This document shows, one piece after another, positions 2,111-55,890 of a stretch of 64,000 nucleotides of DNA (the first letter of the stretch is position 1; every line of letters starts with the position of its first letter). Origin of the DNA: Patescibacteria group bacterium (GTDB lineage Bacteria > Patescibacteriota > Microgenomatia > UBA12405); assembly GCA_038062455.1 (NCBI GenBank), contig JBBTXE010000001.1:381760-445759 (forward strand), written 5' to 3'. A program made the translations under genes and the position numbers. The notes under the pieces were generated by a model. It had not been told where the DNA came from and made no database searches. It saw only the letters and a list, made by a program, of their open reading frames with translations.

Positions 2111-2198
2111 GTGATCTTATACAAACAAATTCGAACTCAATTTCGCGAAAACGCATTGTCGTAGCTCACCGCTCGCTATCGCTCGCGGTTCGCCCTGA
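2111..2198. repeat. IR-A left arm (~88 bp) of an inverted-repeat pair; partner is 2862-2948
   Basis: The reverse complement of 2862-2948 matches with ~66 bp perfect identity, then a few mismatches. Confidence 0.7.
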
Positions 2199-2861
2199 TA
2201 TTTTTTCCAAGCGCGATTTTGCTCGCTTCGCGAGCATATAATAACACAAAACTGCTTCAACTCCAAAAACCTAAACCTAACAATGTATGTTTAACGGGTT
2301 ACTGTCGAGTACTCAATCAACACCGTCAACTGGACCTTACCAAATCAAATCCAAATACCCAAATTATTTCTTCACAGATTTTACAATTTCTCCTCCATCC
2401 AAAGTTATCGAATCTCCAGGATTAAGGCGTCCTGTATCTATAACATTTGAACCATTAGCTTGCCTTACTGCTAATTCACAACCTGAGTTAGTACCTCTAA
2501 CAATTCCTACCATTCCGCCTATTGTACCTTCATGTTTATTTTTATCGTCCCGTGTAATCTTATTTACAATTCTCCCTCCCTGCCATATTTCTGCTGGTGC
2601 CATAATTAATCACCTCCTATCTTTGACAGCGATTATACCACTTTTTACTAGTTGAAAATTTTATGCTTAAGTTTTAAATTAAAAATGGACCCAGATATTA
2701 GCGAATTGCTTTTTTTAATGACGCATTCGGACAGAAAGAAGCAATTCGATCTGAGTCCACCGGATGCGTCATTTAAGTTTAAGAAGACAAAATCAGGAAC
2801 AAAAAATTTTTGCGTTTTCTTTTTGACTATCTGTAAAAATTAAGGTGTTCGAGCCGGCATT

Positions 2862-2948
2862 TAGGGCGAACCGCAAGCGTTAGCGAGCGGTGAGCTACGA
2901 CAATGCGTTTTCGCGAAATTGAGTTCGAATTTGTTTGTATAAGATCAC
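2862..2948. repeat. IR-A right arm
   Basis: Reverse complement of 2111-2198. It abuts the IR-B left arm at the shared 'cacac'. Confidence 0.7.
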
Positions 2949-3050
2949 ACTTTCAGATTTCGCAGAGAAGGCGGTGGCAGATGGCCGACTGCCACGCCAA
3001 GATTTGACCGAATCAAAGCCCAAATTGGGGACAAAAGAAAAGCGGAAAGA
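2946..3050. repeat. IR-B left arm (93 bp perfect, ~105 bp with one mismatch) immediately upstream of the recombinase gene
   Basis: Verified base by base: the reverse complement of 4495-4587 equals 2946-3038 exactly. Identity continues to ~3050 with one mismatch. Confidence 0.8.
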
Positions 3051-3081
3051 TAGAACAAAGGCGAAAACGCAAAAATTTTAA

Positions 3082-4647
3082 TTGATAACTGCCATGAAAT
3101 ACATAGCCTATTGCAGAAAGTCCACTGATGAAAAAGACAAGCAAGTTTTGTCAATTGATGCTCAAATAGCAGAACTTAAAGAGTTTGCCAAGAAGCAAAA
3201 CTTGGAAATTTTAGATTTTGTAGTAGAATCTCGCACAGCCAAAGTCCCGGGGCGACCATTGTTTAACGAAATCCTCGTGCGAATTGAGAAAGGTGAAGCT
3301 CAAGGAATTGTCTCTTGGCACCCTGACCGTTTAGCCAGGAATAGTGTGGATGGTGGAAAAATAATCTACTCACTTGATACTGGGAAGCTAGTTGATCTAA
3401 AATTTCCCTCATTTTGGTTTGAGAATTCACCTCAGGGTAAATTTGTACTCAATATTGCTTTTGGACAATCTAAATATTATGTAGATAATCTTAGCGAGAA
3501 TGTTAAGCGTGGAATGAGGCATAAAGTGAGAATTGGAGTCTGGCCTGTTCAAGCACCTCTTGGCTATTTAAATGACAAAAATACTAAAACGATAGTTATT
3601 GACCCTGTAAGATCCAAAATAACCAAAAAGGTTTTTGAGATGTTTGAGTCGGGAAAGCATTCTTTTACCTCAATTTCAGAATATTTGTTTAAACTAGGCA
3701 TAACTACTCGATTGGGGAGAAAACTTAATCCCGATACCATAAAAAGAATGCTTTCAAACAGATTTTACTTAGGTATTCTTAATTACAAAGGAGAGTTACA
3801 TAAAGGAATTCATAAACCCATTATTTCAAAAACGCTTTTTGATTCTGTCCAAAAGCAAATAGTTAAGTTTGAACGACCCAGAGAACATGGTCACGATTTT
3901 CCCTTTGTTGGTTTGGCTAAATGTGGTGAGTGCGGAGCTTCAATTACCGGTGAAGAACATGCTAGAAACTATAAAAATGGGAATTCTCAAACATTTGCAT
4001 ACTATAGATGTACTAAAAAACTTGGGAAATGCAGTCAAAAATACATTTCTCAAGAAGAATTTGAGCATCAATTAAAAGAAGAGTTACTTGATGTTGCCAT
4101 TCCTCAGGGCTGGTGGAGTGATTGGCTAGCTTGGGTTGAAAGAGACAAAATTAACGAGACAAAACTTGCAAGTCAAAGAGTTGTTGAGGTTGGAGAAGAA
4201 ATGCAGGAAGTTGATAGAAAACTAAACAAACTCCTTGATACTTATTTAGACTCAGTGGTTGATGAAGAGCAATACAAGGCAAAGAAAAATGAATTATTTG
4301 AACAAAAACTAAAACTTCAGGAAAAAATATCAAAAATTCAGAGTGGTGGTTCAAGTTGGCTCGAACCTTTCGAAGAGTTCTTAAAAAGCTCAATAAATTG
4401 CGGAAAAATCGCGCTTGGAAAAAATAATTTGCAAGAATTAAGGATTCTTGCAAGAAATGCCGGCTCGAACTTCTTTCTTTCTGAAAAACGCCTTTCTTTT
4501 GTCCCCAATTTGGGCTTTGATTCGGTCAAATCTTGGCGTGGCAGTCGGCCATCTGCCACCGCCTTCTCTGCGAAATCTGAAAGTGTGAGCCGTGAGAGAC
4601 TCGAACTCTCGACCAATCGCTTAAGAGGCGATTGCTCTACCGACTGA
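3082..4647 (+). CDS. large serine recombinase (resolvase/invertase N-terminal catalytic domain + recombinase domain + zinc ribbon + coiled-coil); the C-terminal tail reads through IR-B and into tRNA-Lys
   Basis: YCRKSTDEKDKQ holds the catalytic-Ser motif of serine recombinases. CGECG...YYRCTKKLGKC is a zinc ribbon typical of large serine recombinases, followed by a coiled-coil C-terminus. The stop codon falls only inside the tRNA (4645-4647), so the last ~45 aa are probably read-through. Confidence 0.75.
   Translation: MITAMKYIAYCRKSTDEKDKQVLSIDAQIAELKEFAKKQNLEILDFVVESRTAKVPGRPLFNEILVRIEKGEAQGIVSWHPDRLARNSVDGGKIIYSLDTGKLVDLKFPSFWFENSPQGKFVLNIAFGQSKYYVDNLSENVKRGMRHKVRIGVWPVQAPLGYLNDKNTKTIVIDPVRSKITKKVFEMFESGKHSFTSISEYLFKLGITTRLGRKLNPDTIKRMLSNRFYLGILNYKGELHKGIHKPIISKTLFDSVQKQIVKFERPREHGHDFPFVGLAKCGECGASITGEEHARNYKNGNSQTFAYYRCTKKLGKCSQKYISQEEFEHQLKEELLDVAIPQGWWSDWLAWVERDKINETKLASQRVVEVGEEMQEVDRKLNKLLDTYLDSVVDEEQYKAKKNELFEQKLKLQEKISKIQSGGSSWLEPFEEFLKSSINCGKIALGKNNLQELRILARNAGSNFFLSEKRLSFVPNLGFDSVKSWRGSRPSATAFSAKSESVSRERLELSTNRLRGDCSTD
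4485..4587. repeat. IR-B right arm, abutting the tRNA-Lys 3' end
   Basis: Reverse complement of 2946-3050. Confidence 0.8.
4584..4602. repeat. 19-bp direct repeat copy within the tRNA-Lys 3' end (attR-like)
   Basis: Identical to 1068-1086. Confidence 0.6.
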
Positions 4648-4658
4648 GCTAACGGCTC
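4586..4658 (-). tRNA. tRNA-Lys (anticodon CTT)
   Basis: Cloverleaf read from the reverse complement: acceptor GAGCCGT/ACGGCTC, D-arm GCTCAGTCGGTAGAGC, anticodon loop CTCTTAA, T-arm GAGAGTTCGAGTCTCTC. Confidence 0.8.
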
Positions 4659-4661
4659 GTG

Positions 4662-4733
4662 TGCGCCTAGGGGGAATCGAACCCTCATCACTAGTTCCGA
4701 AGACTAGGACTCTATCCGTTGAGCTATAGGCGC
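4662..4733 (-). tRNA. tRNA-Arg (anticodon TCG)
   Basis: Reverse complement gives acceptor GCGCCTA/TAGGCGC, anticodon stem CTAGT with loop CTTCGGA, and T-loop TTCGATT. Confidence 0.7.
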
Positions 4734-4750
4734 CATTATAACGAATATTA

Positions 4751-4826
4751 GGTATCCCCAGCAGGGATCGAACCTGCGGCCTTCTCCTTAGAGGGGAGAC
4801 GCTCTATCCAACTGAGCTATGGGGAC
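4751..4826 (-). tRNA. tRNA-Arg (anticodon TCT)
   Basis: Reverse complement gives acceptor GTCCCCA/TGGGGAT, D-arm GCTCAGTTGGATAGAGC, anticodon loop CCTCTAA, and T-arm GCAGGTTCGATCCCTGC. Confidence 0.75.
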
Positions 4827-4880
4827 AAATGTTAATGTAAAACAAGAGTATTTTACCAATTATATTGATAATATTTATTT

Positions 4881-4962
4881 TTCAATAGATAATACGTAGA
4901 GCCGCTGTGGTGAAATTGGTATACACGTACGCTTTAGGAGCGTATGCCGAAAGGTGTGGAGG
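4881..4962 (+). tRNA. tRNA-Leu (anticodon TAG), type II with long variable arm
   Basis: Acceptor GCCGCTG/CAGCGGC, anticodon loop TTTAGGA, a 13-nt variable arm, and T-loop TTCGACT. Confidence 0.75.
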
Positions 4963-5002
4963 TTCGACTCCTCTCAGCGGCACTAAAATGTTAAACTGAT
5001 TC

Positions 5003-6940: not shown

Positions 6941-7072
6941 ATTATATCACAAAAAATTCCAAAAAAAAATCCCAGAGCATGCTTTTTAGAGGAGCCACCC
7001 CGGGATCTTCGTGTACTATATCAAAATATTATAAACACGTCAACAATGAATCTCCATTACACATTTACCCGC

Positions 7073-8579: not shown

Positions 8580-9152
8580 ATGGCAGGTATACTGGCATCC
8601 AAAACAAATCCTAAAAAGATTCAATCTCAAAACGCAGCTAACAGTAATGAAATTCTTAAGGACTCTCAATCTGCTCCTAAAACACCCCAAAAATTAACAC
8701 TTCGTGGAATTTTGGGCCTAAACCAACCGGTGGAAATCCACCCCGCCGCGGCGGGGTGGACTAAAGAAAATCTCGGATTAAACTATCTTGCCACTCAAGA
8801 AAAAGTCCTTTTAGATCAAAAACAAAAAGAATTGGAAAAAGCTGTTGCTGATCTTCAAGAAGAGTTGAAAAAATTAGTTTCCGCCTCTGAGGGTATTGGC
8901 TCTCAAATCGAAAATGCTGTTTTGGAAAATATCCCCCAAGCCTCTGAATATCAGATTTCCTTCCTGAAACGTCTCAAAAACCTCATTGTCAACTTCCGTA
9001 AAAACCTCAACCAAGCTTCCACTTGGCTGGAATGCTTCAATACCAAAAAGAAAAAGAAAAATTATTTTTGGACTATGTCTCGGGACAAAAAGAAAGGTGG
9101 CGAAGCCTATATGTTCAGCGACGAACATTCCGCTGCCAGAAGCGTAGCTTAA
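8580..9152 (+). CDS. hypothetical protein (Lys-rich; contains a 24-bp perfect GC palindrome at 8737-8760)
   Basis: 190-aa ORF with host codon usage. Confidence 0.35.
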   Translation: MAGILASKTNPKKIQSQNAANSNEILKDSQSAPKTPQKLTLRGILGLNQPVEIHPAAAGWTKENLGLNYLATQEKVLLDQKQKELEKAVADLQEELKKLVSASEGIGSQIENAVLENIPQASEYQISFLKRLKNLIVNFRKNLNQASTWLECFNTKKKKKNYFWTMSRDKKKGGEAYMFSDEHSAARSVA

Positions 9153-14303: not shown

Positions 14304-16102
14304 AACTAATATATTCCGAAATTAAAAAATGGCTGCCCGCTCTTCCCGTCGACACCAAAACTCTCCGCGATGATCTAACCCTCATTGGTCACTTCGTCTC
14401 CGGTTTTGAAAACATTGACGGCGAAACTGTTCTCGACTTGGAAATTCGTCAAAATCGGGCTGATTGTCTGGGCTACTACGGTGTCGCCCGTGATTTAGCC
14501 GTTCTTTATAAAATCAATCTGACACTGCCTCAGATAAATACCATAAATTACGCCGATATTCCCGTTCCTGTTACTATTTCTTCCTCTGATGTCCATCGAA
14601 TTCAAGCCACCTCAATTTCTGGTATAAAAAATTATCCGTCCCCCGATTGGTTAGTCAAATTTTTAAAACTTCACGATATAAATTCCATCAATACCTTGGT
14701 TGATCTCACTAATTACGCCATGTTGGAGTGGGGAATTCCCTGCCACGCTTTTGACACCAACAAGTCAGCCAAGCTAATTTGGGAAAATAATCAAAAATAT
14801 TCCGAATTTATCTCACTAGATGGCACCAAGATTAAACTCCAACCTCAAAATTTAGTCATTTCTGACGGCAAAGAGGTTTTGTCCCTATCTTTCATTGGTG
14901 GCCAAAATTCCGGTATCGACTTAACTACCACCGATTCCATTTTAGAAATGGCTGTCTATAATCGGGTTCGAATCAGAAACGATTCCCGCTCCTTAAAAAC
15001 TATCACCGAAGCCTCTATTCGTCTTGACAAAGAATTAGACACCGAAACCATCCCTCTAGCTTTCTCTCATCTTATTTCTCTGATTCAAGAACACTGTCAG
15101 GCCACGGTCAGCGGACAACTTCTTGATATCTATCCCCAAAGGCCACCTCTTATCTCCATTTCCTTCGATCCTCAAAAACCATCTCTTTATGCCGGCATAA
15201 AAATCGATGATGAATTTTCAAAAAAAACATTAACTGCTTTAAATTGTTCTGTTTCCCCTCTTGTCAAAGAGGGGATTAAGGGGAGATTGTTGGTCTCCCC
15301 ACCATCTCTTCGAAAAGATCTGACTATTGAAGAAGATCTAATCGAAGAAATTATCCGTTTTTACGGCTATAACAAAATTCCTACCAACGACCCAATCGAC
15401 TCTACCCAATTTCCCGACATCACCCCTCCAATTCTATATTTATGTGAAAAACTCAAAGACGATTTAGTCGGCCTTGGCTACAATGAAGTCCGCTCCTGGC
15501 CCCTGGTTCGTCATTGCGAGGAGCCATGCGACGCGGCAATCTCAACCCAAAACTCTATCAATTCTGACTATCCCTACCTTCGACAATCTATAATTCAATC
15601 CCTAAAAAATCAACTAGACCAATATTCCAAATATAAACTACCCCACCCTCAATTTTTCGAAATCGGCAAAATCTTTTTTCAAAAAGATGGCAAATATATT
15701 GAAAAATATGCCCTGGGGATTTATAACCCCAATATTGACCATCTTAGTAGAGACGTAGCGCGCTACGTCTCTACAGATCAGGTGAAGTTAGATGGTTCTT
15801 TTGCTGAAATCATCCTCGATGACCTCCCTAAACCTGACAAATATATCCCTAAGGTTATTAACAACAACGCTATTGAGCTAACTTCCCAAATTATTACTCT
15901 CGATGCCAATGTCAACCTTAAATCACCCCAAGATCCGGCCAAATTAATTGCCAAATACTCTGCTCTTATCGATCCATCCATCCTCTGGTCTATAGAAATC
16001 ATTGACATCTACCAAACCCGCTGCACTTTCCGTGTTTCCTACTACAACTGCGACCACAAAAACGCCAAAAAAATCCACCTTAAAACCTTCAATCTGATTT
16101 AG
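14300..16102 (+). CDS. pheT: phenylalanyl-tRNA synthetase beta subunit (no N-terminal tRNA-binding domain)
   Basis: The B3/4 domain carries GIPCHAFD. The B5 domain carries DLTIEEDLIEEIIRFYGYNKIP. A catalytic-like core and C-terminal domain follow. Confidence 0.85.
   Translation: MKLIYSEIKKWLPALPVDTKTLRDDLTLIGHFVSGFENIDGETVLDLEIRQNRADCLGYYGVARDLAVLYKINLTLPQINTINYADIPVPVTISSSDVHRIQATSISGIKNYPSPDWLVKFLKLHDINSINTLVDLTNYAMLEWGIPCHAFDTNKSAKLIWENNQKYSEFISLDGTKIKLQPQNLVISDGKEVLSLSFIGGQNSGIDLTTTDSILEMAVYNRVRIRNDSRSLKTITEASIRLDKELDTETIPLAFSHLISLIQEHCQATVSGQLLDIYPQRPPLISISFDPQKPSLYAGIKIDDEFSKKTLTALNCSVSPLVKEGIKGRLLVSPPSLRKDLTIEEDLIEEIIRFYGYNKIPTNDPIDSTQFPDITPPILYLCEKLKDDLVGLGYNEVRSWPLVRHCEEPCDAAISTQNSINSDYPYLRQSIIQSLKNQLDQYSKYKLPHPQFFEIGKIFFQKDGKYIEKYALGIYNPNIDHLSRDVARYVSTDQVKLDGSFAEIILDDLPKPDKYIPKVINNNAIELTSQIITLDANVNLKSPQDPAKLIAKYSALIDPSILWSIEIIDIYQTRCTFRVSYYNCDHKNAKKIHLKTFNLI
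15747..15774. repeat. 28-bp perfect palindrome gtagagacgtagcgcgctacgtctctac inside pheT (family P1)
   Basis: Perfectly self-complementary. Read in frame it encodes SRDVARYVST. The same 9-bp arms recur at 52045, 53089 and 53807. Confidence 0.85.
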
Positions 16103-18935: not shown

Positions 18936-20921
18936 ATGCCCTCTCTGGAAACCCTCAAAGGAATTGGTCCAAAAAGTGTCCTTTACCTTCAAAAAATGGG
19001 GATTTTTACACCCAAAGAACTTCTCTTTCATTTTCCTCACCGATACCTTGATTTTTCTCACTTCATTAAAATAAAAGATTTAAAAACCGACACTTTGGTT
19101 ACTGTCAAAGGGACCATTACTTCCTTTCAAAATATCTTTACTCGCCAAAGAATTAATCTCCAAAAGGCTACCCTCAAAGATAACACCGGGGAGCTAAATC
19201 TTATTTGGTTTAATCAACCCTACCTCTCAAAAACACTTAAACCCGGTAAAATCACTCAAGTCGCCGGTCAGGTTGGTCTCTTTCAAAACCGTCCCGCCCT
19301 GATTTCCCCCCGCATCAGTCTAAACGCCACCGGTAAAATTCTGCCTATCTACCCGGCTTCCATCCGTCTAAGTTCCGCCGTCTTATCAAAAATATTAACT
19401 GCCAATCTGGGTTATCTTTTGGCCGATATCGCCGACCCCTTACCCCCAAAAATACTTCAAAAATTTTCACTCCTACCTCTTGGGGACGCTCTTTCGGAAA
19501 CCCACCAACCTTCCTCAATTAAGCTTCTCTCCCTTGCCCAAAATCGCCTTAAAATCGACGAATTCCTGTCTCTTTTGGCATTCAGTCTCGATCAAAAAGT
19601 AAAAACCTCATTCTTATCTCCTGCCTTCATTTTAAAAAACAAAAACAAAGTTGACACTCTCATCAATAAACTTCCCTTTAAACTCACTCCTTCCCAATCT
19701 CAAGCCTGGCAGGAACTAAAAAATGACCTTCTCTCCGCTACCCCCTGCCACCGTCTTCTTGGCGGCGATGTCGGCTCGGGTAAAACCATTATTGCCATTT
19801 TAGGCTGTTACCTTAGTCACCTCAATGGCTTTCAAAGCCTTTATTTAGCTCCCACCGAAATATTGGCCCGTCAGCATCTAATTACTTTTAATAAATTTCT
19901 TCCCCAACTTCCAGTCAAACTTCTCACTTCAAAAAATAAAATAAAAAATATCGCCAAAAATGCCATCATTATCTCCACTCACGCCGCCCTCTACCTTCCT
20001 AAAAATTCTTTCCGGAAACTCGCTTTTTTAGTCGTTGACGAACAGCATAAATTCGGAGTCGAGCAGCGCAATTTCTTCAGTCATTCCCGCGAAAGCGGGA
20101 ACCCATCCAACCCCCACACCCTCACCATGACCGCTACCCCCATTCCCCGAACCCTGTCTCTCACCCTCTTTGGCCATCTTGACATTTCTCGCCTGGAAAT
20201 TCTACCCTCCCGAAGACAGGTGACCACCTTTTTTGTCCCCCAGCCAAAAATCAGCACCTGTTATCAATGGCTGGACAAACATCTTAAAACAACCGGGCAA
20301 CAGGCCTTTTTTGTCTGCCCTTTCATTGCCGATTCCGACACTCAAACCAACGTCAAGTCAGCCAGCTCCGAGTTTGCCAACTTAAAAAACATCTTTCCTA
20401 AACTGCGGCTGGAACTCCTTCATAGTCAAATTAAAAGTGAGACGAGAGACAAAATCATGTCAAATTTCACTTTAGGTAAAATTGATATCTTAGTCTCCAC
20501 CCCGATTATTGAAGTCGGCATCGATTTCCCCAATGCTGCGGTTATAATAATTCAATCAGCCGACCGTTTTGGTCTGGCCTCCCTTCACCAACTTCGCGGC
20601 CGGGTCGGCCGAAGTTCTAAAAAATCTTACTGTTTTCTTTTAAGTAATAACCCTAAAAAAATTGCCCAAGACCGGCTTTCTTTTATGGAAAATCACCATA
20701 ACGGCTTAAAAATCGCCGAATACGACCTTAAAAATAGGGGACCGGGTGAAATCTATTCCACCCTCCAGCACGGTTTTCCCTCTCTCAATTTAGCCACCAT
20801 CGATGACCTCGACACCCTGTCTCTCTCCCAAAAAATCTTTGAAAGTCTAAAAGCAATTCCCGGTTTTAACCCCCAAAAATTAATCACCCACTCAACTAAT
20901 ACTAAAATATCGATAAATTAG
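18936..20921 (+). CDS. recG: ATP-dependent DNA helicase RecG
   Basis: LKGIGPKSVLYLQKMGIFT is a helix-hairpin-helix-like N-terminus. GDVGSGKT is Walker A, VVDEQHKFGV is the DEQH box, and LRGRVGRS is motif VI. Confidence 0.85.
   Translation: MPSLETLKGIGPKSVLYLQKMGIFTPKELLFHFPHRYLDFSHFIKIKDLKTDTLVTVKGTITSFQNIFTRQRINLQKATLKDNTGELNLIWFNQPYLSKTLKPGKITQVAGQVGLFQNRPALISPRISLNATGKILPIYPASIRLSSAVLSKILTANLGYLLADIADPLPPKILQKFSLLPLGDALSETHQPSSIKLLSLAQNRLKIDEFLSLLAFSLDQKVKTSFLSPAFILKNKNKVDTLINKLPFKLTPSQSQAWQELKNDLLSATPCHRLLGGDVGSGKTIIAILGCYLSHLNGFQSLYLAPTEILARQHLITFNKFLPQLPVKLLTSKNKIKNIAKNAIIISTHAALYLPKNSFRKLAFLVVDEQHKFGVEQRNFFSHSRESGNPSNPHTLTMTATPIPRTLSLTLFGHLDISRLEILPSRRQVTTFFVPQPKISTCYQWLDKHLKTTGQQAFFVCPFIADSDTQTNVKSASSEFANLKNIFPKLRLELLHSQIKSETRDKIMSNFTLGKIDILVSTPIIEVGIDFPNAAVIIIQSADRFGLASLHQLRGRVGRSSKKSYCFLLSNNPKKIAQDRLSFMENHHNGLKIAEYDLKNRGPGEIYSTLQHGFPSLNLATIDDLDTLSLSQKIFESLKAIPGFNPQKLITHSTNTKISIN
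20084..20102. repeat. ttcccgcgaaagcgggaac hairpin-palindrome (family P2) in frame inside recG
   Basis: Identical, including flanks (tcattcccgcgaaagcgggaacc), to the copy at 40821-40839 in a pseudopilin leader region. Encodes HSRESGN in recG. Confidence 0.8.
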
Positions 20922-33187: not shown

Positions 33188-33938
33188 CTATTTCCTAATT
33201 TCGGCAAAATTTAACCCTGACAGATAACTATCAATTTCTTCGTCATTCAAGCCTTCGGAAAAGTAAATTGATTGAAGCTCATTTTGCTTGTCACCCTTCG
33301 CTAATCGCCAATTACTTTTGATATTCCGGGAACTAACCGGTTTCCTGATTTCTTTCTTTTTAACCAACCTAATCACTTCGTCCAAATCTATCGCCAGTTT
33401 CTTATTGATCATTGAAAAATCGTAAAAATCACGGTATCTAACTCTGTCATTCATAGCCCGAATTTTTTCGGCTACAATTTCAGCAATATCCATAACCATC
33501 ACTTTGGCTTCCACCCCATATTGATTGTGATAAATCATTTCCCTGGGAGGCAAAACAACATTCTGAAGAAAATCAATTTCTACCTTAAGTGAATTTGGCT
33601 GGGCCAGGGGACCGGTATACAACAATCTTTCAATTTTATAGGTAGCATCAGAAACATAGAACCGACTTCACCTCCTCAAGATCAATTCCCGCCCGATTAG
33701 TCGAAAAGTCCAAATCTTCTGAAAACCTAAACTGCGGCAAATAGGTGTGATACAAAGCGGTACCACCCTTAAATATTAACTTTGTTTTTAACACTGAACC
33801 ATAGATTATCTTACACACCAGTGCCAAAAAATAATCCTTTTCGGCGATAGCTAAAGGATACTTAAGTTGACGGTTAAGAAGAGTTAAGGTAACTTTATCC
33901 AATAATTCGATTATCATAGTAAATTCGCCACTTAGCAT
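33188..33938 (-). pseudogene. AbiEii-like nucleotidyltransferase toxin, split by a frameshift into 96-aa and 145-aa ORFs
   Basis: The N-terminal fragment has FKGGTALYHTY...RFSEDLDFS. The C-terminal fragment aligns with the C-terminus of the intact paralog at 34790-35509. The frames differ across 33625-33648. Confidence 0.5.
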
Positions 33939-34668
33939 TAAATGTCTTTGATTCCTTCGTGAATCGGGATAAGCCTTTATTTTCCGCCAATATTCGGTAA
34001 AGCCCTTGGGTATTTACCCCCAACTGATCGAGAAAAAAACCAATTTTGCGTCTGATCGTCATATCAGATCTTAAAGCATAATTCTGTAACTTATTTAAAT
34101 CCAAACTTTCCTGATACTCTCTTAATTTTTCAAAAACTACACTGGCCGAAGTATAACTCTTATCCAGATATAGATAATCAATCAAAGCTTTTTCAACATC
34201 GGCAATTCTTACTATTTTTCCGGCCTCTATCTTTTGGGAAAAACCAAAAAACATATTCTCTTTAACTTTGGCAAATTTAAAGACAAAATCATCAAAAATG
34301 TATTTCTTGGAATCGGCAGTAGTCACTGACACAATAGTCTTAGAATATTGGTCAAACATATGATAATAATTAAGAGCATAGGAAAGACTAATATAAGAAC
34401 TCTTATTTAAAGCATTGGCGATAAGCATTAGCGAATTATCGTTTTGGAAACGAGAGCTTAAGTTTTCAATAACCAGATATAATCCCCGCTTAATTCGTTT
34501 CAACCAACCGGCCTTGGTTAGTTTTTGGATACGATTATGAGCCGACAAATTTGAATACTCAATTCTAAAAATAGTCATTAGATCATCAATACCCACAATT
34601 CGGCCGTATTTTAGGATTATCTGCTCGATTAAGTTAGTATCCTTTTCGGTTAAAATTGTAGTTTTCAT
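33895..34668 (-). CDS. AbiEi-like antitoxin / transcriptional regulator (wHTH N-terminus)
   Basis: KLTKAGWLKRIKRGLYLV is the AbiEi-type 'RGLY' wHTH motif. It is paired with the downstream nucleotidyltransferase gene. Confidence 0.5.
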   Translation of the reverse strand: MKTTILTEKDTNLIEQIILKYGRIVGIDDLMTIFRIEYSNLSAHNRIQKLTKAGWLKRIKRGLYLVIENLSSRFQNDNSLMLIANALNKSSYISLSYALNYYHMFDQYSKTIVSVTTADSKKYIFDDFVFKFAKVKENMFFGFSQKIEAGKIVRIADVEKALIDYLYLDKSYTSASVVFEKLREYQESLDLNKLQNYALRSDMTIRRKIGFFLDQLGVNTQGLYRILAENKGLSRFTKESKTFNAKWRIYYDNRIIG

Positions 34669-34741
34669 GGGTAAATATACACCTTTATTGATATATAACT
34701 GTAACTATTATATACAATATTGTCAAGAAAGAACAGATTCT

Positions 34742-34778
34742 AAAATCCTATCGAAAAAGATACATACTAATTACTTAT
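34742..34778. repeat. conserved 37-bp inter-module motif (copy 3)
   Basis: aaaatcctatcgaaaaagatacatactaattacttat. Confidence 0.7.
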
Positions 34779-34789
34779 TAATAACCCTA

Positions 34790-35509
34790 CTACATATTTC
34801 TACCTATCTCCCCTAAAAGACTTTTTTTTAAGTCGCGAACCATCATCGCCTGACTTCTCGGCAGAAACAAAGCCAACTCTGTCTCGAAATTAATTTCCTT
34901 CTTATTTAACAATTGTCTGACTTTTACCAATTGTTTCTTTTGGTTGGGAGACAATAGGTTGGCCCGAAGCATAAAATATAGATCATAAAAATCACGGGCT
35001 TTCTGTCTATCCAGTAACGCTGCCACTTTACTATCAACCAAATTCGCCGTCGCCAAACTCTTAATAAAATATGGGGCGGTAAAATCACTTTCAACTGTAA
35101 ACGCCTCACCTTCAACCATATCTTTTCGAAAAGATATTTCAAAGTGAATTTTTATCGGATCACCAACATGGCTCAAAATCACGATTCCTAAATATCCACC
35201 ACTGGTAGTTTTACTTTCTTCAATTTCTACTCCGATCCCTTCTCTCGATATATCCACCAAAACATCCTCTATAACCTGTTCCCAAGTCTGAAGTTTATGC
35301 ACTGTGGTATCGAAATCAAGATCTTCTGAAAAACGAGGACTTCGATAAAGAATTCTTAAGGCTGTTCCTCCTTTAAAATACAAATTACTTGACTGCTTCT
35401 TTTGGTATAAGTAACTTAACAATAAATGTTGGACATATTCCCGTCTGATATTTAATTCCGAAGTTTGAAATTTAACCGATGTTTTTTGTAAAAAAGACAG
35501 ACTAAGCAT
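34790..35509 (-). CDS. AbiEii/AbiGii-family nucleotidyltransferase toxin
   Basis: YFKGGTALRILYRSPRFSEDLDFD is the GGT...R.SEDLDF signature of the AbiEii (DUF1814) NTase family. Overlaps the upstream AbiEi gene by 8 nt. Confidence 0.65.
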   Translation of the reverse strand: MLSLSFLQKTSVKFQTSELNIRREYVQHLLLSYLYQKKQSSNLYFKGGTALRILYRSPRFSEDLDFDTTVHKLQTWEQVIEDVLVDISREGIGVEIEESKTTSGGYLGIVILSHVGDPIKIHFEISFRKDMVEGEAFTVESDFTAPYFIKSLATANLVDSKVAALLDRQKARDFYDLYFMLRANLLSPNQKKQLVKVRQLLNKKEINFETELALFLPRSQAMMVRDLKKSLLGEIGRNM

Positions 35510-36092
35510 ATTTATTAATTAATTTTATTAAAGATTTATTGTTAAATAAATTAGCATAAAACTGAATCTTTTTTTTATTCACCGACGATAAATCCAATCT
35601 CTCCAACCAAGCTCTTTTATTAAGTGACACCAGATACAAATAATCGATCACCGCCTTTTCCACTTCAGCCATCAAAAACCTTTTTTCATCTATAATCTTT
35701 AATTCATAACCGGTGTAAGCCTCCGGTTTAATTGTCGAATAGCTATATGTTTTGTCACTGGTTACAAATTCCCGCGTCGTTTTAGTGGTGGCGGAAGTAA
35801 CTTTGTAAACCATTTCCGGAACTAGATTATAATAAGCCAAAGCATACTCAAAAGAGACATAGGAAGGTCGATACAATCGATTGGCAATTTCCAGTTCTGA
35901 CGGTAAATCATTCTTTAGAGAATAAAGACCTCGTTTTATTTGACTAAACAAACCCTCTTTCAATCCTTTTTCCAAATAATAAAGGGATTGCCTTGAAGAT
36001 AAATTCAATAATTCACCTAATTCGCGAGCAGAAAATACTCTGGTATTACTTTCCAGTAAAATTTTTCTAATACTTAAACTTGATATAGCCAT
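35502..36092 (-). CDS. AbiEi-like antitoxin
   Basis: ARELGELLNLSSRQSLYYLEKGLKEGLFSQIKRGLYSL is the N-terminal wHTH of AbiEi. Confidence 0.55.
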   Translation of the reverse strand: MAISSLSIRKILLESNTRVFSARELGELLNLSSRQSLYYLEKGLKEGLFSQIKRGLYSLKNDLPSELEIANRLYRPSYVSFEYALAYYNLVPEMVYKVTSATTKTTREFVTSDKTYSYSTIKPEAYTGYELKIIDEKRFLMAEVEKAVIDYLYLVSLNKRAWLERLDLSSVNKKKIQFYANLFNNKSLIKLINKYA

Positions 36093-36162
36093 TTCATTTA
36101 TTACTTAAATAACTGTAATTAATGAAACAAGTATGGATTAATATTACCTTAATGTCAACCCT

Positions 36163-36199
36163 AAAATCCTCTAGAAAAAGATACATACTAGATACTTAT
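36163..36199. repeat. conserved 37-bp inter-module motif (copy 2)
   Basis: aaaatcctctagaaaaagatacatactagatacttat. Confidence 0.7.
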
Positions 36200-36205
36200 C
36201 TAAAA

Positions 36206-37054
36206 TTATCCGCTCAAATACTTCTTACTTTGATTATAATTATTATAAAAGTTTTCCACATACCCATCCAAAAGCAGGGGATTATCGATAAACGGCAATA
36301 AGTCTTGTTTAAAATATTGTTTACTGACTGTCGTTGCCATTTCCACCTTGTCATCAATTAAACTAATCAACTGACCTATCGAATAAGAACTTTTTAACAA
36401 ATCATTTAATCGATTTATATTGGGATATACTTTTTTATCTAAAAACCACAATAAATCAAAATAATCTCTACCTTTAATTACCCTAATATTTTCTTTTCCC
36501 AACAACCTCTGTCTTGTTAAAATAGTGGCGATTTTGCTAGCCATCAATGAAGGCAGGTCGTAGTGTGTCACCAAATAGTTAAAATTGTTAATATTTCTCA
36601 GAGTCGTAAGTTCACCATATATTTCTGAAACCATCGGCGATAAATCAATCTTTACATATAAGAGATCACTTTCGGCCGGTGTCGCCAAACCTAAATCTCT
36701 CAATACCGGAAACTTTAGAAGCAATTGCCAACCTTTTTGCAATACAGACACCGCTAAACCGTTATACATAAACTCGGTTTTAAAATAAGTTTCAACTGTC
36801 TTTTTCAAAATAGTCACGTCAACCGGTTTTTTTAGATCAAAATCCAGATCCTCAGACAGTCGATTTAAACCAAAACAATGTCGCAAACAAGTTCCGCCGG
36901 TAAACACAAACACCTTATTATAAATTTGGTTTAAATAAATAAAATTAAGAACATATATTTGTAAAAACTCTTTTAGCAAACTCCTGATATACAAATTCGA
37001 CTTATTCTGAATCCCTTGTTTATTTAAAAGCGATCTCATTTCTTCAATAATCAC
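36206..37054 (-). CDS. AbiEii-family nucleotidyltransferase toxin (paralog)
   Basis: FTGGTCLRHCFGLNRLSEDLDFD. Stop/start overlap with the upstream AbiEi gene. Confidence 0.6.
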   Translation of the reverse strand: MIIEEMRSLLNKQGIQNKSNLYIRSLLKEFLQIYVLNFIYLNQIYNKVFVFTGGTCLRHCFGLNRLSEDLDFDLKKPVDVTILKKTVETYFKTEFMYNGLAVSVLQKGWQLLLKFPVLRDLGLATPAESDLLYVKIDLSPMVSEIYGELTTLRNINNFNYLVTHYDLPSLMASKIATILTRQRLLGKENIRVIKGRDYFDLLWFLDKKVYPNINRLNDLLKSSYSIGQLISLIDDKVEMATTVSKQYFKQDLLPFIDNPLLLDGYVENFYNNYNQSKKYLSG

Positions 37055-37689
37055 TTCATTGTCTCCTTAAGGTAAACTACTAAATTAGTAAATTTCCCCA
37101 TCCCCGAAAGCTCCACTAAATATTTCAAATTTTCAAAATCGCTCACTGTTAAATCCTCTAAATTTAGCCTGAAAGAATCGATAACTTCTTGGTTAATTTC
37201 CGGCACTCTCCACAATCTAAAATATAAATAATCAAACAAAGCCTTCGTTTTTGTCGCCTCTTTTATTTCATATCCGGATTTAGAAACAATATTAAAACCA
37301 ATAAACAATTTATCTTTTATGTTTGAATATAAAAAAACACCTAATTTATTGTTGTAAACCCTAGTCTTTTTTCGGGTGACCGAAGTTATCGAGAACACCG
37401 CTTCGGACAATATTCCATATTTTTGCAGGACATATTCTCCGCTCAAATACGACGGTTTTTTAAGAATATTGGCTACAAATTCACTATAACTCTGTTTGTC
37501 ACCACATTGCGAATAATATTCCCGAGTTACATATATTCCTTTTTTTAATTGAATCAACCTCCCGCTATCTATCCACCGGGCAACATTTGCCGAAACAGCA
37601 TCATCACTACCCCCAATTACCTCTTTCAGAGTATTTTTGTCAAAAAAACTGGCAGAGGTTAACTTCGATAAATTACTAATCCTGTTCAT
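37051..37689 (-). CDS. AbiEi-like antitoxin (paralog)
   Basis: LIQLKKGIYVTREYY is a KRGxY-type wHTH. Its C-terminal domain resembles the other AbiEi copies (ALFDYLYF). Confidence 0.5.
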   Translation of the reverse strand: MNRISNLSKLTSASFFDKNTLKEVIGGSDDAVSANVARWIDSGRLIQLKKGIYVTREYYSQCGDKQSYSEFVANILKKPSYLSGEYVLQKYGILSEAVFSITSVTRKKTRVYNNKLGVFLYSNIKDKLFIGFNIVSKSGYEIKEATKTKALFDYLYFRLWRVPEINQEVIDSFRLNLEDLTVSDFENLKYLVELSGMGKFTNLVVYLKETMK

Positions 37690-37777
37690 ACTTATTTCAC
37701 AATTAATAGATAAAACATACTAATTGTGAAATATGATAATACTTTTATACTACTATGTCAATAACCCCAATCTTGAA

Positions 37778-37811
37778 ATCTTACAGAAAAAGATACATAC
37801 TCAATACTTAT
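37778..37811. repeat. conserved inter-module motif (copy 1, slightly diverged)
   Basis: aatcttacagaaaaagatacatactcaatacttat. Confidence 0.6.
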
Positions 37812-37831
37812 TTTCCCCCAACTTTATCAGC

Positions 37832-38449
37832 TTAAGATAAACTGACGGCAATAAGTTTTTGTCTAATCGTTTCATCATCAACGTCAAAGCCGGGCAAATA
37901 TTCAACCGATTCGGAATAATCAAGGTCTTGGTAATAGGCAAGCTGTTCCCGAAAAAGTTTTTCATCAAATTCGTTTTTATAAATGGAAATGGCTTTGACA
38001 ATAAGTTCTTTTAAGGAAAAAGATTGAAAAATAAAGAAAAGATCAACATAATCTTTCCATTTAGCGCGGCGTCCGAGGGCAAAAGCTTTCATAGCCGCGA
38101 TAGTCAAAGGGTCGGGTAAAGAAATAATGTCATTAAAATTAACTTGATGTTCAATCGGATATGGGTAACCGTAAAAGGTCATTTTGACGTTGTCAACTAA
38201 TAAAGTAAATTCTGTTCTCGTTTCAATCAAGATGCGATTAATTGTATGGCCCTGTTTAATATCAGAACGAATCCGTAGGCTATCAAATGATTTATCGGTA
38301 AAAAGGTCAAAGTCAATTGATCGTCGATGACCTAATTGTAAAGCCAGGGCAGTACCACCAACCAGGTAAAAAGAGGAAGAAAAAATTTTTACCAGAGGTA
38401 AAAGATCAGTTTGGGTTTTGACAAGAATATTAGGATACATATTTGGCAA
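37832..38449 (-). CDS. nucleotidyltransferase-fold protein (AbiEii-like / minimal NTase toxin-like)
   Basis: VGGTALALQLGHRRSIDFDLF has the GGTAL...R.S.D.D pattern. Confidence 0.45.
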   Translation of the reverse strand: MPNMYPNILVKTQTDLLPLVKIFSSSFYLVGGTALALQLGHRRSIDFDLFTDKSFDSLRIRSDIKQGHTINRILIETRTEFTLLVDNVKMTFYGYPYPIEHQVNFNDIISLPDPLTIAAMKAFALGRRAKWKDYVDLFFIFQSFSLKELIVKAISIYKNEFDEKLFREQLAYYQDLDYSESVEYLPGFDVDDETIRQKLIAVSLS

Positions 38450-40436: not shown

Positions 40437-40868
40437 TTATGGGTTTGTCACCCGATAGTTGCACGTCCCTCCGCAACCCGCCCCATAACTTCCATTAGTC
40501 GACCCCAAATCCTCCATCTTAGCATCCAAAGTATATTTATAGTTGTTACTGCCAACAACAATCAAATAACTATAAGTATCTCCTTTGGGGCCAGAGGGTA
40601 TAGCCTGAATATAATTCGGTGTCAAAGAGGTAATGACGCTTGGATATGTCGTTCCTGTCTGCCGCATTGCCTCCAACGCCAATCTCACTCTTTCTAAATC
40701 GCTTTGCCGTCTGGAATCCCGGGATTTCATATTGACTCCGGAAAAACTGACCACCCCAACCACCGAAACCACCATGATTATCGTTATCACTACGATCAAT
40801 TCAATTAAACTAAAAGCGTCATTCCCGCGAAAGCGGGAACCTATATTTGATTTTATTTCTTTTTTCAA
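40437..40868 (-). CDS. pseudopilin with extended leader MKKEIKSNIGSRFRGNDA|FSLIELIVV
   Basis: Prepilin-type N-terminus. The leader codons contain a P2 hairpin-palindrome (40821-40839). Confidence 0.65.
   Translation of the reverse strand: MKKEIKSNIGSRFRGNDAFSLIELIVVITIIMVVSVVGVVSFSGVNMKSRDSRRQSDLERVRLALEAMRQTGTTYPSVITSLTPNYIQAIPSGPKGDTYSYLIVVGSNNYKYTLDAKMEDLGSTNGSYGAGCGGTCNYRVTNP
40821..40839. repeat. P2 palindrome ttcccgcgaaagcgggaac in a pseudopilin leader (identical to the recG copy)
   Basis: Encodes GSRFRGN on the minus strand. Confidence 0.8.
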
Positions 40869-40897
40869 TTCGTAATTCGTAATTATTAATTCGTAAT
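40866..40897. repeat. tandem aattcgtaatt units in the pilin intergenic spacer
   Basis: aattcgtaattcgtaattattaattcgtaatt. Related TTCGTAATT units occur in the 43513 and 49788 repeats. Confidence 0.5.
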
Positions 40898-40901
40898 TAA
40901 C

Positions 40902-41366
40902 TTATTGTTGACTTTTAACACAGTAAAAACGCCCACTGGCCACAAAACTACAAGTATTCGTTGACGAATTCCCCAACGTTAAATCCTCGGTTGCTGCGCA
41001 AGCGCAGTAGGTGGTCGCAATATTGTAAACATAAGATGTCCCCCCCACCCCTTTTGGATCAGTCGGCCAAAGCTGCATTACTCCACTGGTCACAAATGCA
41101 CCCGTGGTCGCCGGATAAACATAACTATTTTGCGAATAATATTGCTCCGCCGCCTTCTGGATCGATCCCATATCAGAAATCCGCCGGCTGTCTCTGGCCT
41201 TTTTTTGAACCGAAGAATAAGACATAGTCGCAATCGCTACTAAAATAGCAATAATCGAGATACTGACTAACAATTCAAACAACGTAAAAGCTTCATTCCC
41301 GCGCCGTGCCTGCCGGCAGGCAGGAAAGCGGGAACCTATTTTTTTGTTCATATTTAATTTGCGCAA
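40902..41366 (-). CDS. pseudopilin with extended leader (..IGSRFPACRQARRGNEA|FTLFELLV)
   Basis: Prepilin N-terminus. Contains the extended P2 copy with an inner palindrome cctgccggcagg. Confidence 0.65.
   Translation of the reverse strand: MRKLNMNKKIGSRFPACRQARRGNEAFTLFELLVSISIIAILVAIATMSYSSVQKKARDSRRISDMGSIQKAAEQYYSQNSYVYPATTGAFVTSGVMQLWPTDPKGVGGTSYVYNIATTYCACAATEDLTLGNSSTNTCSFVASGRFYCVKSQQ
41296..41335. repeat. P2 palindrome, extended variant with nested inner palindrome (ttcccgcg-ccgtgcctgccggcaggcaggaaa-gcgggaac)
   Basis: Outer arms are identical to the other P2 copies. Confidence 0.7.
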
Positions 41367-41806
41367 ACAACATATAATTTATCAGTTGTTACTCCAATCC
41401 CACACTTCTTCTGTGAATTCACATCATCATCGCCCGCTCCCGATTCTAAATTCAAACGCAAATTAAAACCATCGCCATTATTGATTTGTTCATAAGTATA
41501 AGTATAGCCCAAATTCATAATTGAGGGCATATAAGCCGTCATTCCCACCCCCAAAGTTCCTCCGATTCCTGTGGGATACGCCTGGTTGTCGTTGTAGTAC
41601 AGTCTCAAGGAATTTTTAATGGCATTCATATCACTCACTCTTTGGGCATCGCGCGCCCTCTCCCGCGCTCCCATAAAATTTGGCAAAGTTATTGCCGAAA
41701 TTACTGCAATAATGCTAATCACCACCAACAGTTCCACCAGCGAAAAACCACTATCCCCGCGCACGCGGGGACCTATATATATACTATTGTAAATTACCAT
41801 CAGCAT
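41354..41806 (-). CDS. pseudopilin with leader ..IGPRVRGDSG|FSLVELLVV
   Basis: Prepilin N-terminus. P2 variant tccccgcgcacgcgggga at 41744-41761. Confidence 0.65.
   Translation of the reverse strand: MLMVIYNSIYIGPRVRGDSGFSLVELLVVISIIAVISAITLPNFMGARERARDAQRVSDMNAIKNSLRLYYNDNQAYPTGIGGTLGVGMTAYMPSIMNLGYTYTYEQINNGDGFNLRLNLESGAGDDDVNSQKKCGIGVTTDKLYVVCAN
41744..41761. repeat. P2 palindrome variant tccccgcg-ca-cgcgggga
   Basis: 8-bp GC arms. Encodes GPRVRG. Confidence 0.7.
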
Positions 41807-42308
41807 CTAAACTAGTATTCGGGGAAACATAGGCAAAACAATAAGAATTAGTACTGCCGCCGCAATCGTAAGTCACGGGGTTTAGGCATTCTTTATCGAC
41901 GGTATTTTCCAACATCGCCAACAGAGCGTATTTCTTTTTATAAGTATCGGTTTTATAGCAATAAGGCGGCGCCCCAATTTTGTTTTCCCGGGGTAATATC
42001 TTCATATACACATAACCTCCATCATTAAACTCACTCCCCCAATCTATGGCCGCGCCTCCTATCATAATTTTTCCAGCCGGATTAGCCGCCGGGAATATAC
42101 CATAATCGGTAAAATACATCTGCAATGCCTTGGCTACCCCGTTTAAATCCGACTTTCTAGCCACATCGTTGGCTTTTTTCTTGGCCGTCTGAAACTGCGA
42201 CACGGTAATTGTCACCAAAATCATCATTATGGCCACCACAATCAACAATTCTACTAAAGTAAAACCCCTGTTCCCGCAAAAGCGGGAACCTATATATTTT
42301 CCCTTCAT
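41784..42308 (-). CDS. pseudopilin with leader MKGKYIGSRFCGNRG|FTLVELLIV
   Basis: Prepilin N-terminus. P2 copy at 42271-42289. Confidence 0.65.
   Translation of the reverse strand: MKGKYIGSRFCGNRGFTLVELLIVVAIMMILVTITVSQFQTAKKKANDVARKSDLNGVAKALQMYFTDYGIFPAANPAGKIMIGGAAIDWGSEFNDGGYVYMKILPRENKIGAPPYCYKTDTYKKKYALLAMLENTVDKECLNPVTYDCGGSTNSYCFAYVSPNTSLDADGNLQ
42271..42289. repeat. P2 palindrome ttcccgcaaaagcgggaac
   Basis: Arms ttcccgc/gcgggaa with loop aaaa. Confidence 0.75.
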
Positions 42309-42332
42309 TATTTATTTAAATCTATCACACTT

Positions 42333-42358
42333 AAATTAGAAATTAGAAATTAGAAATT
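42333..42358. repeat. tandem aattagaa octamer x3 upstream of the pilin gene
   Basis: aattagaaattagaaattagaaatt in the 50-bp spacer. Confidence 0.55.
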
Positions 42359-43885: not shown

Positions 43886-43911
43886 CTAAAAAACCCCCGC
43901 CACAGCGGGGG
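43886..43911 (-). terminator. rho-independent terminator downstream of pilA (minus strand)
   Basis: On the minus strand, hairpin cccccgc-tgtg-gcggggg is followed by TTTTTAGTTT. Confidence 0.6.
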
Positions 43912-43931
43912 TTCCAAAAACCAGATCTAAA

Positions 43932-55033: not shown

Positions 55034-55065
55034 GCGCTCGCCGCGCCCGCCCCCGCGGCGAGCGC
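55034..55065. other. 12-bp-stem GC hairpin gcgctcgccgcg-cccgcccc-cgcggcgagcgc (possible terminator or structured RNA)
   Basis: Perfect 12-bp inverted repeat, nearly 100% GC, in an AT-rich genome. Confidence 0.5.
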
Positions 55066-55853: not shown

Positions 55854-55890
55854 AAATTTGTTCGTTCGCCGGGGCGAACGAAAATCGCGC

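Follow-up and report, generated by a model that had tools for sequence, protein, structure and literature searches.

In-frame hairpin palindromes resembling CGTC-1 repeats in recG and in the leaders of five adjacent minor pilins of a patescibacterial genome

Why does the same GC-rich hairpin lie in a helicase gene and in a row of pilin genes of a genome with a GC content of ~40%? The question is raised by a 64,000-nucleotide stretch of DNA (the window; contig JBBTXE010000001.1 of assembly GCA_038062455.1, positions 381,760 to 445,759) from a Patescibacteria genome (candidate phyla radiation [CPR], Microgenomates-like). By Pfam, the window carries housekeeping genes and a type IV pilus operon with PilB, PilT, PilC, a major pilin, PilD, and a row of minor pilins. 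A first-pass annotation had described a dispersed family of hairpin palindromes, P2, and this description was borne out: the copies exceed chance and extend beyond the window. What the annotation had overlooked is that the family is already described, as a repetitive extragenic palindromic (REP) sequence of the CGTC-1 type, the dRS3/NTS-like Ssn-related motif (SRM). The answer that we favor, with a probability of roughly 0.78, is a recent lineage-specific expansion of this known selfish hairpin, which was kept where extra residues are harmless.

The pattern TTCCCGC-N4-GCGGGAA, allowing up to two mismatches, was found five times in the window (20084, 40822, 41754, 42271, and 43023), compared to 0.25 expected occurrences, and none of 100 shuffled sequences had five or more. 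A sixth copy (41295 to 41335), whose loop is broken by the perfect palindrome TGCCTGCCGGCAGGCA, was spotted on reading the pilin genes, and a seventh lies in the same genome ~2.6 kb upstream of the window start (L282:6204-6231). Altogether, 84 kb of this genome of at least 663 kb was examined, i.e., the window and two 10-kb extensions (L282 and L283). Seven copies in 84 kb stand against none in ~133 kb of related genomes.

The P2 unit has a length of ~30 nt and consists of a (C)GTC tag, a stem of 7 to 8 bp (ATTCCCGC / GCGGGAA(T/C)), a 4-nt loop, and a short tail starting with CCA or CTA. All copies fold as single-stranded DNA (ssDNA) into a 7- to 8-bp stem with a 4-nt loop, with energies of -7.5 to -10 kcal/mol. 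The tag is CGTC at 40817 and L282:6204, AGTC in recG, and CGTT at 43018 and is degenerate at 41291 (CTTC), 41750, and 42267; the loops are GAAA, GAAA, GCAC, AAAA, and GGAC, and that of one further copy is interrupted by the nested 16-nt palindrome. Only the L282 copy has the full stem ATTCCCGC / GCGGGAAT. The six copies of the window terminate in GGGAAC or GGGGAC, which leaves A·C as the first pair and a stem of 7 bp; the copy at 42270 reaches 8 bp by a different pair. The tail begins with CCA in recG, at 43023, and in L282 and with CTA in the other four copies. There are two tail subfamilies, CCCATCCA being common to recG and the first pilin gene (pil1) and CCTATAT being common to pil2 to pil5, which argues for copying from at least two sources rather than for convergence. 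All seven copies are single units within open reading frames (ORFs), and all reading frames used are hydrophilic: HSRESGN in the two sense copies (recG and a MiaB-like gene) and (G)SRFRGN-type peptides in the five antisense copies (pilins). HSRESGNP is also found in frame in a glycosyltransferase of an unrelated low-GC contig (L147). Regardless of gene orientation, the tag strand is the same chromosome strand, the C-rich one, in all seven copies. This shared strand hints at a process tied to ssDNA or replication but is not statistically firm, because the pilin copies may not be independent. Of the target site duplications expected of a miniature inverted-repeat transposable element, there was only a possible 5-nt direct repeat, ACTAT, at the 41750 copy and none at the others.

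The recG copy (20079 to 20109, plus strand) has its AGTC tag at 20079 to 20082, the stem arms TTCCCGC at 20084 to 20090 and GCGGGAA at 20095 to 20101 around the loop GAAA, and the tail CCCATCCA; its predicted folding energy is -8.5 kcal/mol (z = -5.5). In frame, it reads S-H-S-R-E-S-G-N-P-S, which includes the HSRESGN peptide given by the first-pass annotation. The repetition of this copy at a pilin leader, also claimed there, was found to extend over 24 nt (GTCATTCCCGCGAAAGCGGGAACC, 20080 to 20103, identical to 40818 to 40841), and the downstream flank GGGAACCCATCCA indeed recurs at 43036 to 43048. The recG gene (18936 to 20921, plus strand) encodes 661 amino acids with the Pfam domains RecG_wedge, DEAD, and Helicase_C, and P2 falls in the linker that joins helicase motifs II (DEQH) and III (TATPIPRT). 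This linker has 19 residues here but 12 to 15 in all 119 homologues compared. The distance between the motif boundaries is 114 nt, compared to 99 nt in the syntenic orthologues L006, L007 (76% identity), and L008 (69% identity), none of which has the hairpin; the net gain is 15 nt, or 5 amino acids. In recG, the proposed in-frame insertion therefore stood up to the comparison with orthologues. In the solved RecG structures 9wm0 and 1gm5, too, the linker is not of the same length, which fits a permissive site.

The most canonical copy is CGTCATTCCCGCGAAAGCGGGAATCCAC at L282:6204-6231. It lies in sense orientation and in frame (RHSRESGNP) in a gene for a MiaB/RimO-like radical-SAM methylthiotransferase and agrees with the NTS consensus of Neisseria, CGTCATTCCCGCGMAVGCGGGAATCYRG, in 27 of 28 positions. 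The copy falls in a loop of the N-terminal domain, which is 3 amino acids longer than in the solved MiaB (7mjz).

The other five copies are in five consecutive N_methyl minor-pilin genes on the minus strand (in gene order, 42359 to 43060, 41784 to 42308, 41354 to 41806, 40902 to 41366, and 40437 to 40868), each directly 5' of the cleavage motif G/A-F-T/S-L-x-E-L, as in the leaders MKKKWMGSRVRGNNA|FTLVEI and MKGKYIGSRFCGNRG|FTLVEL. The first-pass annotation had correctly assigned pilin copies to the same family as the recG copy but had counted two, whereas all five minor pilins of the cluster carry P2. The tag of each of these copies is on the plus strand. In the leader of gene 42359-43060, P2 (43018 to 43048) has the tag CGTT, the hairpin ATTCCCGC GGAC GCGGGAAC, and a CCATCCA tail of the recG subfamily; it lies 17 nt downstream of the PilD stop codon and reads M-G-S-R-V-R-G-N-N-A followed by F-T-L-V-E-I. 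The copy in gene 41784-42308 (42267 to 42296; stem GTTCCCGC, loop AAAA, stem GCGGGAAC; -10 kcal/mol) reads I-G-S-R-F-C-G-N-R-G, then F-T-L-V-E-L. In gene 41354-41806 (copy at 41750 to 41782), the stem is a variant, TCCCCGC / GCGGGGA with the loop GCAC, in which a T-A pair is changed to C-G on both arms; this copy lies 13 nt downstream of the preceding stop codon and reads I-G-P-R-V-R-G-D-S-G, then F-S-L-V-E-L. The copy in gene 40902-41366 (41291 to 41339), with TGCCTGCCGGCAGGCA nested in its loop at 41307 to 41322, reads G-S-R-F-P-A-C-R-Q-A-R-R-G-N-E-A, then F-T-L-F-E-L. Finally, the copy in gene 40437-40868 (40817 to 40846; CGTC tag, ATTCCCGC GAAA GCGGGAAC, tail CTATAT) reads I-G-S-R-F-R-G-N-D-A, then F-S-L-I-E-L. 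Three of the five P2 leaders have Ala instead of Gly at position -1. The sites are 13 to 71 nt downstream of the preceding stop codon and 15 to 40 nt into the next ORF. The sole N_methyl gene of the block without P2 is the major-pilin-like gene (43932 to 44603, minus strand), which has a plain leader (MKRIKNAVSTGFTLVEL) and is followed by a classical terminator hairpin at 43890 to 43915.

The complete syntenic operon of four relatives, L249, L252, L250, and L251 (PilC identities of 89, 86, 75, and 71%), served for comparison. Their orthologous leaders are all short and conventional (e.g., MKKIKTLGFTL), and none has the P2 core. In nucleotide alignments with these genomes, the pilin-leader copies are clean insertions of ~30 to 50 nt; at the 41750 site, the gap is ~30 to 33 nt against all four (leader MAIYNKGFSL). 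The counterparts of the other leaders are VKKQKGFSL and VNKKNGFTL for gene 40437-40868 (L249 and L252), MKKIKTLGFTLFEL for gene 40902-41366 (L249), VRKTGFTL and VKKGFTL for gene 41784-42308, and VKKRIWGFTL for gene 42359-43060 (L252), where L249 has a different, degenerate palindrome. The adjacent gene for the prepilin peptidase PilD of the A24 family (43057 to 43872, minus strand; Pfam A24_N_bact and Peptidase_A24) encodes the enzyme that, judged by sequence, would remove the leader peptides encoded by P2. A word-indexed search gave no candidates for leader-embedded copies elsewhere, and phmmer with a 42-amino-acid leader against 1.84 billion representatives gave one match, a spurious ORF across repeat arrays; either the arrangement is rare or it is undetectable with so short a query. 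Separately, heptamer tandem repeats (TAATTCG / TTCTAAT type) are present in short spacers 5' of two minor-pilin genes (40869 to 40900 and ~42310 to 42350), and a related tract, GAATTACGAATTA, is translated in a leader of L250 (14657).

The copies are fixed. RecG of the window is unchanged in the metagenome-assembled genome GCA_964362845.1, in four Logan assemblies, and on a 663-kb contig, and a second assembly of the same strain is of Hainich aquifer origin. The recG and pilin regions are 99.8 to 100% identical across independent assemblies (five per region, six samples in total), and therefore, the P2 copies are not assembly artifacts. Among the assemblies of this species, no presence/absence variation was observed, all P2 sites being identical.

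A hairpin in ligA (51848 to 51866, plus strand; TCCCGCG CCTGA CGCGGGA) had been claimed as a third housekeeping copy inserted in frame. It folds well (-9.5 kcal/mol) and encodes VPRLTRD as stated, but its membership in P2 was not confirmed. The site (HVPRLTRDLS) shows no indel compared to the syntenic orthologues of L249 (FVSCLPPDFS), L250 (MMMSLPNHFT), and L251 (FVPKLPKKFS), and the hairpin has a 5-nt loop, has no CGTC/AT tag, and does not match the SRM pattern. The absent indel alone is no proof, because other palindromes of the window replace segments of equal length without an indel. The case is decided by the preserved orthologous residues: V-P-x-L is kept, and 14 of 19 nt (74%) are identical to the orthologous L249 DNA. 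The ligA hairpin thus probably arose in place by a few substitutions in orthologous coding DNA.

To which family does P2 belong? By its sequence, it is a CGTC-1-type REP, that is, a member of the family of Neisseria dRS3/NTS, the SRM, and Rickettsia RPE-6. The core GTCATTCCCGCGAAAGCGGGAA shares a 22-nt identity with dRS3/NTS copies of N. gonorrhoeae, which read CGTCATTCCCGCGAAAGCGGGAATCTAG. The published SRM pattern, HGTCWYN(0-2)YYVSBRHN(0-5)WNVSBRGN(0-2)RNCYNB, has two matches in the window versus 0.08 expected (20079 to 20106 and 40817 to 40844) and a third at L282:6204-6231; the four other pilin copies do not match it. According to the available part of the survey by Di Nocera, De Gregorio, and Rocco (2013; PMC3733652), dRS3 and RPE-6 of Rickettsia conorii belong to the CGTC-1 family of tagged REPs, which is defined by a CGTC tag (with TGTC and CCTC variants), an 8-bp stem that opens with AT around a 4-nt loop, and a CCA tail. 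P2 shares the tag type (CGTC or a variant), the loop length, and the CCA-type tail, and its L282 copy has the full ATTCCCGC / GCGGGAAT stem. The same part of the survey reports intragenic CGTC and GTAG REPs, a trait shared by P2, with enrichment in replication/repair genes and at ORF N termini, and states that no transposase is known for CGTC REPs. The differences are that the P2 host is a patescibacterium of ~40% GC, not among the hosts named in the portion of PMC3733652 that was accessible, that all copies of P2 are single units in ORFs, and that C replaces the stem-closing T in the six window copies.

The accessible text of Chenal et al. (2025; PMC11893778) describes that the NTS (CGTCATTCCCGCGMAVGCGGGAATCYRG) is bound as ssDNA by the 94-amino-acid GIY-YIG nuclease SsnA and cut a few nucleotides upstream, that SsnA action lowers the integration of NTS-bearing transforming DNA, that NTS-ssnA-NTS units resemble insertion sequences, and that SRMs are present in many phyla. 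According to the same text, the C after the palindrome is most critical for SsnA binding, and this C is present in all P2 copies. Like the NTS, P2 is directional; it nearly has the NTS consensus and gave the three SRM matches. The first description of dRS3 came from a study of gonococcal silent pilin genes (cited as reference 32 in PMC11893778). In contrast to P2, whose copies are all intragenic, 98% of the NTS of N. meningitidis are intergenic, as stated in that text, and the 84 kb examined of the P2 host gave no ssn gene. The location of five copies in prepilin leaders is not mentioned in the accessible parts of PMC3733652 or PMC11893778.

The 23-mer of P2 was found exactly in at least 120 metagenome contigs, almost all of 56 to 73% GC, and in 27 viral contigs. 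In these contigs, it usually makes up one arm of an inverted doublet, CGTCATTCCCGCGAAAGCGGGAACCCAG ... CTGGGTCCCCGCTTTCGCGGGGATGACG, corresponding to the head-to-head dimers of CGTC-1 REPs; tandem arrays also occur. BLAST of the doublet against annotated replicons gave N. gonorrhoeae (>37 places per chromosome), Azospirillum, sphingomonads, Cupriavidus, and others, and a contig scan with TTCCCGCNNNNGCGGGAACC gave, among the matches listed, only high-GC Proteobacteria, Dehalococcoidia, and similar genomes. The 23-mer flanks ssn-like GIY-YIG ORFs in L141 (frameshifted), L257, L030, L091, L172, L194, L196, and L233. L257 is a viral/prophage contig with a complete hairpin-ssn-hairpin unit, and two high-GC contigs from Hainich (L215 and L236), the same aquifer as that of the CPR host, have the identical 23-mer; L236 also has a recG-like CCCATC tail. 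These three contigs are possible donors or vehicles for horizontal transfer of P2.

Other known systems fit less well. Rickettsia palindromic elements (RPEs) have reportedly been inserted in frame in protein-coding genes, and classical RPE-1 has 100 to 150 bp. P2 resembles them as selfish palindromic DNA that adds short hydrophilic segments in frame at permissive sites of a reduced genome, with the gene preserved, but it has only ~30 nt, is found in another phylum, and occupies leader peptides; the available part of PMC3733652 equates RPE-4 and RPE-6 to CGTC REPs. GTAG REPs and REPINs, which RAYT (Y1 HUH) transposases mobilize, are also short 4-nt-tagged hairpins acting through ssDNA, but the P2 tag is CGTC-like, and a Pfam scan of 50 ORFs of the window gave no RAYT (Y1_Tnp) gene. 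The stem of the type I-E CRISPR repeat is CCCCGC-N4-GCGGGG, and that of P2 resembles it, but there is neither an array nor spacers. Intrinsic terminators were also rejected: three copies pass a loose scan, but their T-runs are weak or distant and mostly on the antisense strand, and the recG copy is in the middle of the gene. Rfam gave only tRNAs at the gathering score and, by E-value threshold, only generic hairpin noise. A literature search gave no paper with the translated repeat peptides (VIPAKAGIQ, SRFRGND, and others) and none on palindromic repeats in Patescibacteria. Within the literature and sequence searches made, the CPR host, a distribution confined entirely to genes, and prepilin leaders as repeatedly occupied sites are new.

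How could such an element have spread in a genome with almost no intergenic space? P2 would act at the DNA level, with the hairpin forming on ssDNA, as is established elsewhere. In other bacteria, the hairpin serves as the binding site of the small GIY-YIG nuclease Ssn, which cuts single strands a few nucleotides upstream of the tag, and the hairpin-flanked ssn genes look like insertion sequences. By analogy, P2 copies may have been spread by an ssDNA enzyme acting in trans. They would then persist only where ~10 extra hydrophilic residues are tolerated, such as the motif II-III linker of RecG, the loop of the MiaB-like enzyme, and N-terminal leaders that prepilin peptidase would cut off; the leader sites, past the preceding stop codon, are in the classical REP position. 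The P2-bearing leaders would still be processed, and the copies would be neutral passengers rather than functional elements.

Several observations weigh against this expansion. A tblastn search with a metagenomic ssn (GIY-YIG, cd10448-like) probe, which finds neighbors of the 23-mer in seven other loci, and a motif scan gave no ssn gene in the window, L282, or L283 (~84 kb of at least 663 kb), no GIY-YIG or Y1_Tnp (RAYT) protein was found by Pfam among 50 ORFs of the window, and neither the two extensions nor the loci of the relatives have ssn-like or RAYT genes. The literature itself offers no demonstrated mechanism by which CGTC REPs or NTS copies multiply. The six window copies have GGGAAC instead of GGGAAT, a variant that an Ssn might fail to recognize. 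Only 2% of the NTS of N. meningitidis are intragenic according to the accessible text of PMC11893778, so the fully intragenic pattern here is atypical. Five of six neighboring pilin leaders are occupied at the same codon position, more than would be predicted from simple tolerance; a preference for the target, selection, or gene conversion among the 5' ends of paralogues may have a part in this five-in-a-row pattern. Lastly, the GTAG-family palindromes of the window (see below) replace segments of equal length without an indel, and "insertion" may therefore oversimplify the mechanism.

If the five leader copies are not independent, a single leader insertion could have been spread to four paralogues by gene conversion via the conserved sequence for the N-terminal helix, leaving ~3 to 4 true events in 84 kb. 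The paralogues indeed share the FTLVELL-coding block directly 3' of P2, all leader copies are at the same codon position, and four have the ATATAGG / CCTATAT tail in common. However, the five copies differ in loop (in gene orientation TTTC, GTGC, TTTT, GTCC, and nested), tag, and stem variant, pil1 belongs with recG to the other tail subfamily, and upstream of P2 there is no homology for a two-sided conversion. We regard this origin as possible but doubtful, and it would change the event count, not the identity of the element. It is unlikely that the leader hairpins are functional cis-acting RNA elements of the operon, with the recG and MiaB copies as by-products. As intercistronic stem-loops, they would stabilize the upstream mRNA or damp the translation of minor pilins relative to the hairpin-free major pilin, and their position 13 to 71 nt past the preceding stop and 15 to 40 nt into the next ORF, the absence of a hairpin from the major-pilin-like gene alone, and the three weak terminator-like scores would agree with this; REPs in such positions are thought to act as RNA elements, as the available part of PMC3733652 has it. 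But the same operon runs without such a hairpin in four relatives, and P2 also lies mid-gene in recG and the MiaB-like gene, where it is oriented the other way with respect to transcription. The two-arm change that keeps the stem of the 41754 copy (TCCCCGC / GCGGGGA) could be taken as a sign of selection on RNA, but this stem is a common family variant in unrelated high-GC bacteria, and therefore, the change need not reflect local RNA selection. A regulatory role or gene conversion may add to the run of five occupied leaders. Neither of them explains the recG and MiaB copies or the presence of the family across phyla.

Chance, or mis-assembly of a high-GC contaminant into a low-GC genome, is effectively refuted. 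The 23-mer is common among high-GC bacteria of soils and aquifers, including the Hainich contigs, and the break of one short-read contig (L287) falls exactly within the nested palindrome, but the shuffle expectations are 0.25 versus 5 observed for the stem-loop pattern and 0.08 versus 2 for the SRM, every copy is a ~30-nt in-frame unit with low-GC orthologous coding sequence on both sides, and none of the independent assemblies examined (six samples) differs in the copies. A further reading, rather improbable in our view, is that the leader hairpins have been co-opted as directional Ssn-type sites of ssDNA cleavage or recombination on both sides of each minor-pilin gene. Patescibacteria are believed to rely on DNA uptake by type IV pili, and if co-option were true, incoming or replicating single strands would be cut at each pilin-gene boundary, so that a cassette-like exchange of pilin alleles would be controlled or promoted; the hairpins would also lengthen the leader and throttle minor-pilin translation. 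The location of all seven copies on the same chromosome strand is compatible with such a replication- or ssDNA-linked process, and cassette-like exchange has been proposed for NTS-gene-NTS arrangements in Neisseria.

If P2 is an expansion of the CGTC-REP/NTS family, this family, whose cognate ssDNA nuclease was described only in 2025, would extend to the CPR, and a compact genome would provide a case in which the elements survive in frame in dispensable segments (helicase linker, enzyme loop, and cleaved signal leaders). The five adjacent occupied leaders would be a natural test of how much extra sequence, including Ala at -1, is tolerated by prepilin peptidases. In them, the hairpin family would be associated with pilin loci once more and independently, a point of relevance to the link with natural transformation that has been proposed. 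For annotation, such elements create spurious "conserved" peptides (HSRESGNP and SRFRGND) and contig breaks in CPR assemblies.

P2 is one of several GC-rich palindrome families in the window, in which 13 perfect GC-rich hairpins (stem of at least 8 bp, stem GC of at least 0.6) were found versus 0.5 expected. The palindrome nested in P2, TGCCTGCCGGCAGGCA (coding for PACRQA / PAGRQ), represents a third family; apart from 41307 to 41322, it occurs independently in pilin leaders of two related genomes (L249:16338-16353 and L250:14677-14698), with a degenerate copy at L249:12824. Several palindrome families have thus repeatedly landed or been retained in leaders. GTAG-tagged 28-nt palindromes (GTAGAGACG...CGTCTCTAC) are in frame in pheT (15747 to 15774), twice in ligA (52045 to 52072 and 53089 to 53116), and in pth (53807 to 53834). 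The copy at 52045 is a clean insertion of 10 amino acids (VETLRATSLP) compared to three orthologues, whereas the remaining copies stand in place of segments of almost the same length (+2, 0, and +1 amino acids), which is odd for a simple insertion. GC hairpins at 7068, 8742, 43896, and 55934 were considered as P2 members and rejected, as they have different stems. Further isolated GC-rich perfect hairpins are at 8737 to 8760, 15254 to 15275, 55034 to 55065, 55861 to 55882, and 55932 to 55949; the 24-nt palindrome, TCCACCCCGCCGCGGCGGGGTGGA, lies inside the DUF5660 gene, whose length is essentially unchanged (-1 amino acid) compared to L006.

Among the other features of the window, four tandem AbiEi/AbiEii (type IV toxin-antitoxin) pairs occupy 33188 to 38449, one AbiEii being split (33188 to 33625 and 33648 to 33938). 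Two genes encode a "23S rRNA intervening sequence protein" (PF05635; 28179 to 28529 and 46948 to 47313); one of them sits between pilB and pilT, a position that is empty of it in L249, L250, and L251. A large serine recombinase gene (3082 to 4647) is bracketed by 100-nt inverted repeats (2945 to 3044 and 4489 to 4588) that are 99% complementary, a second inverted pair of 86 nt is at 2111 to 2196 and 2863 to 2948, and a cluster of four tRNAs follows at 4586 to 4982. The region from 2111 to 4647 may be an invertible segment or an integrated element.

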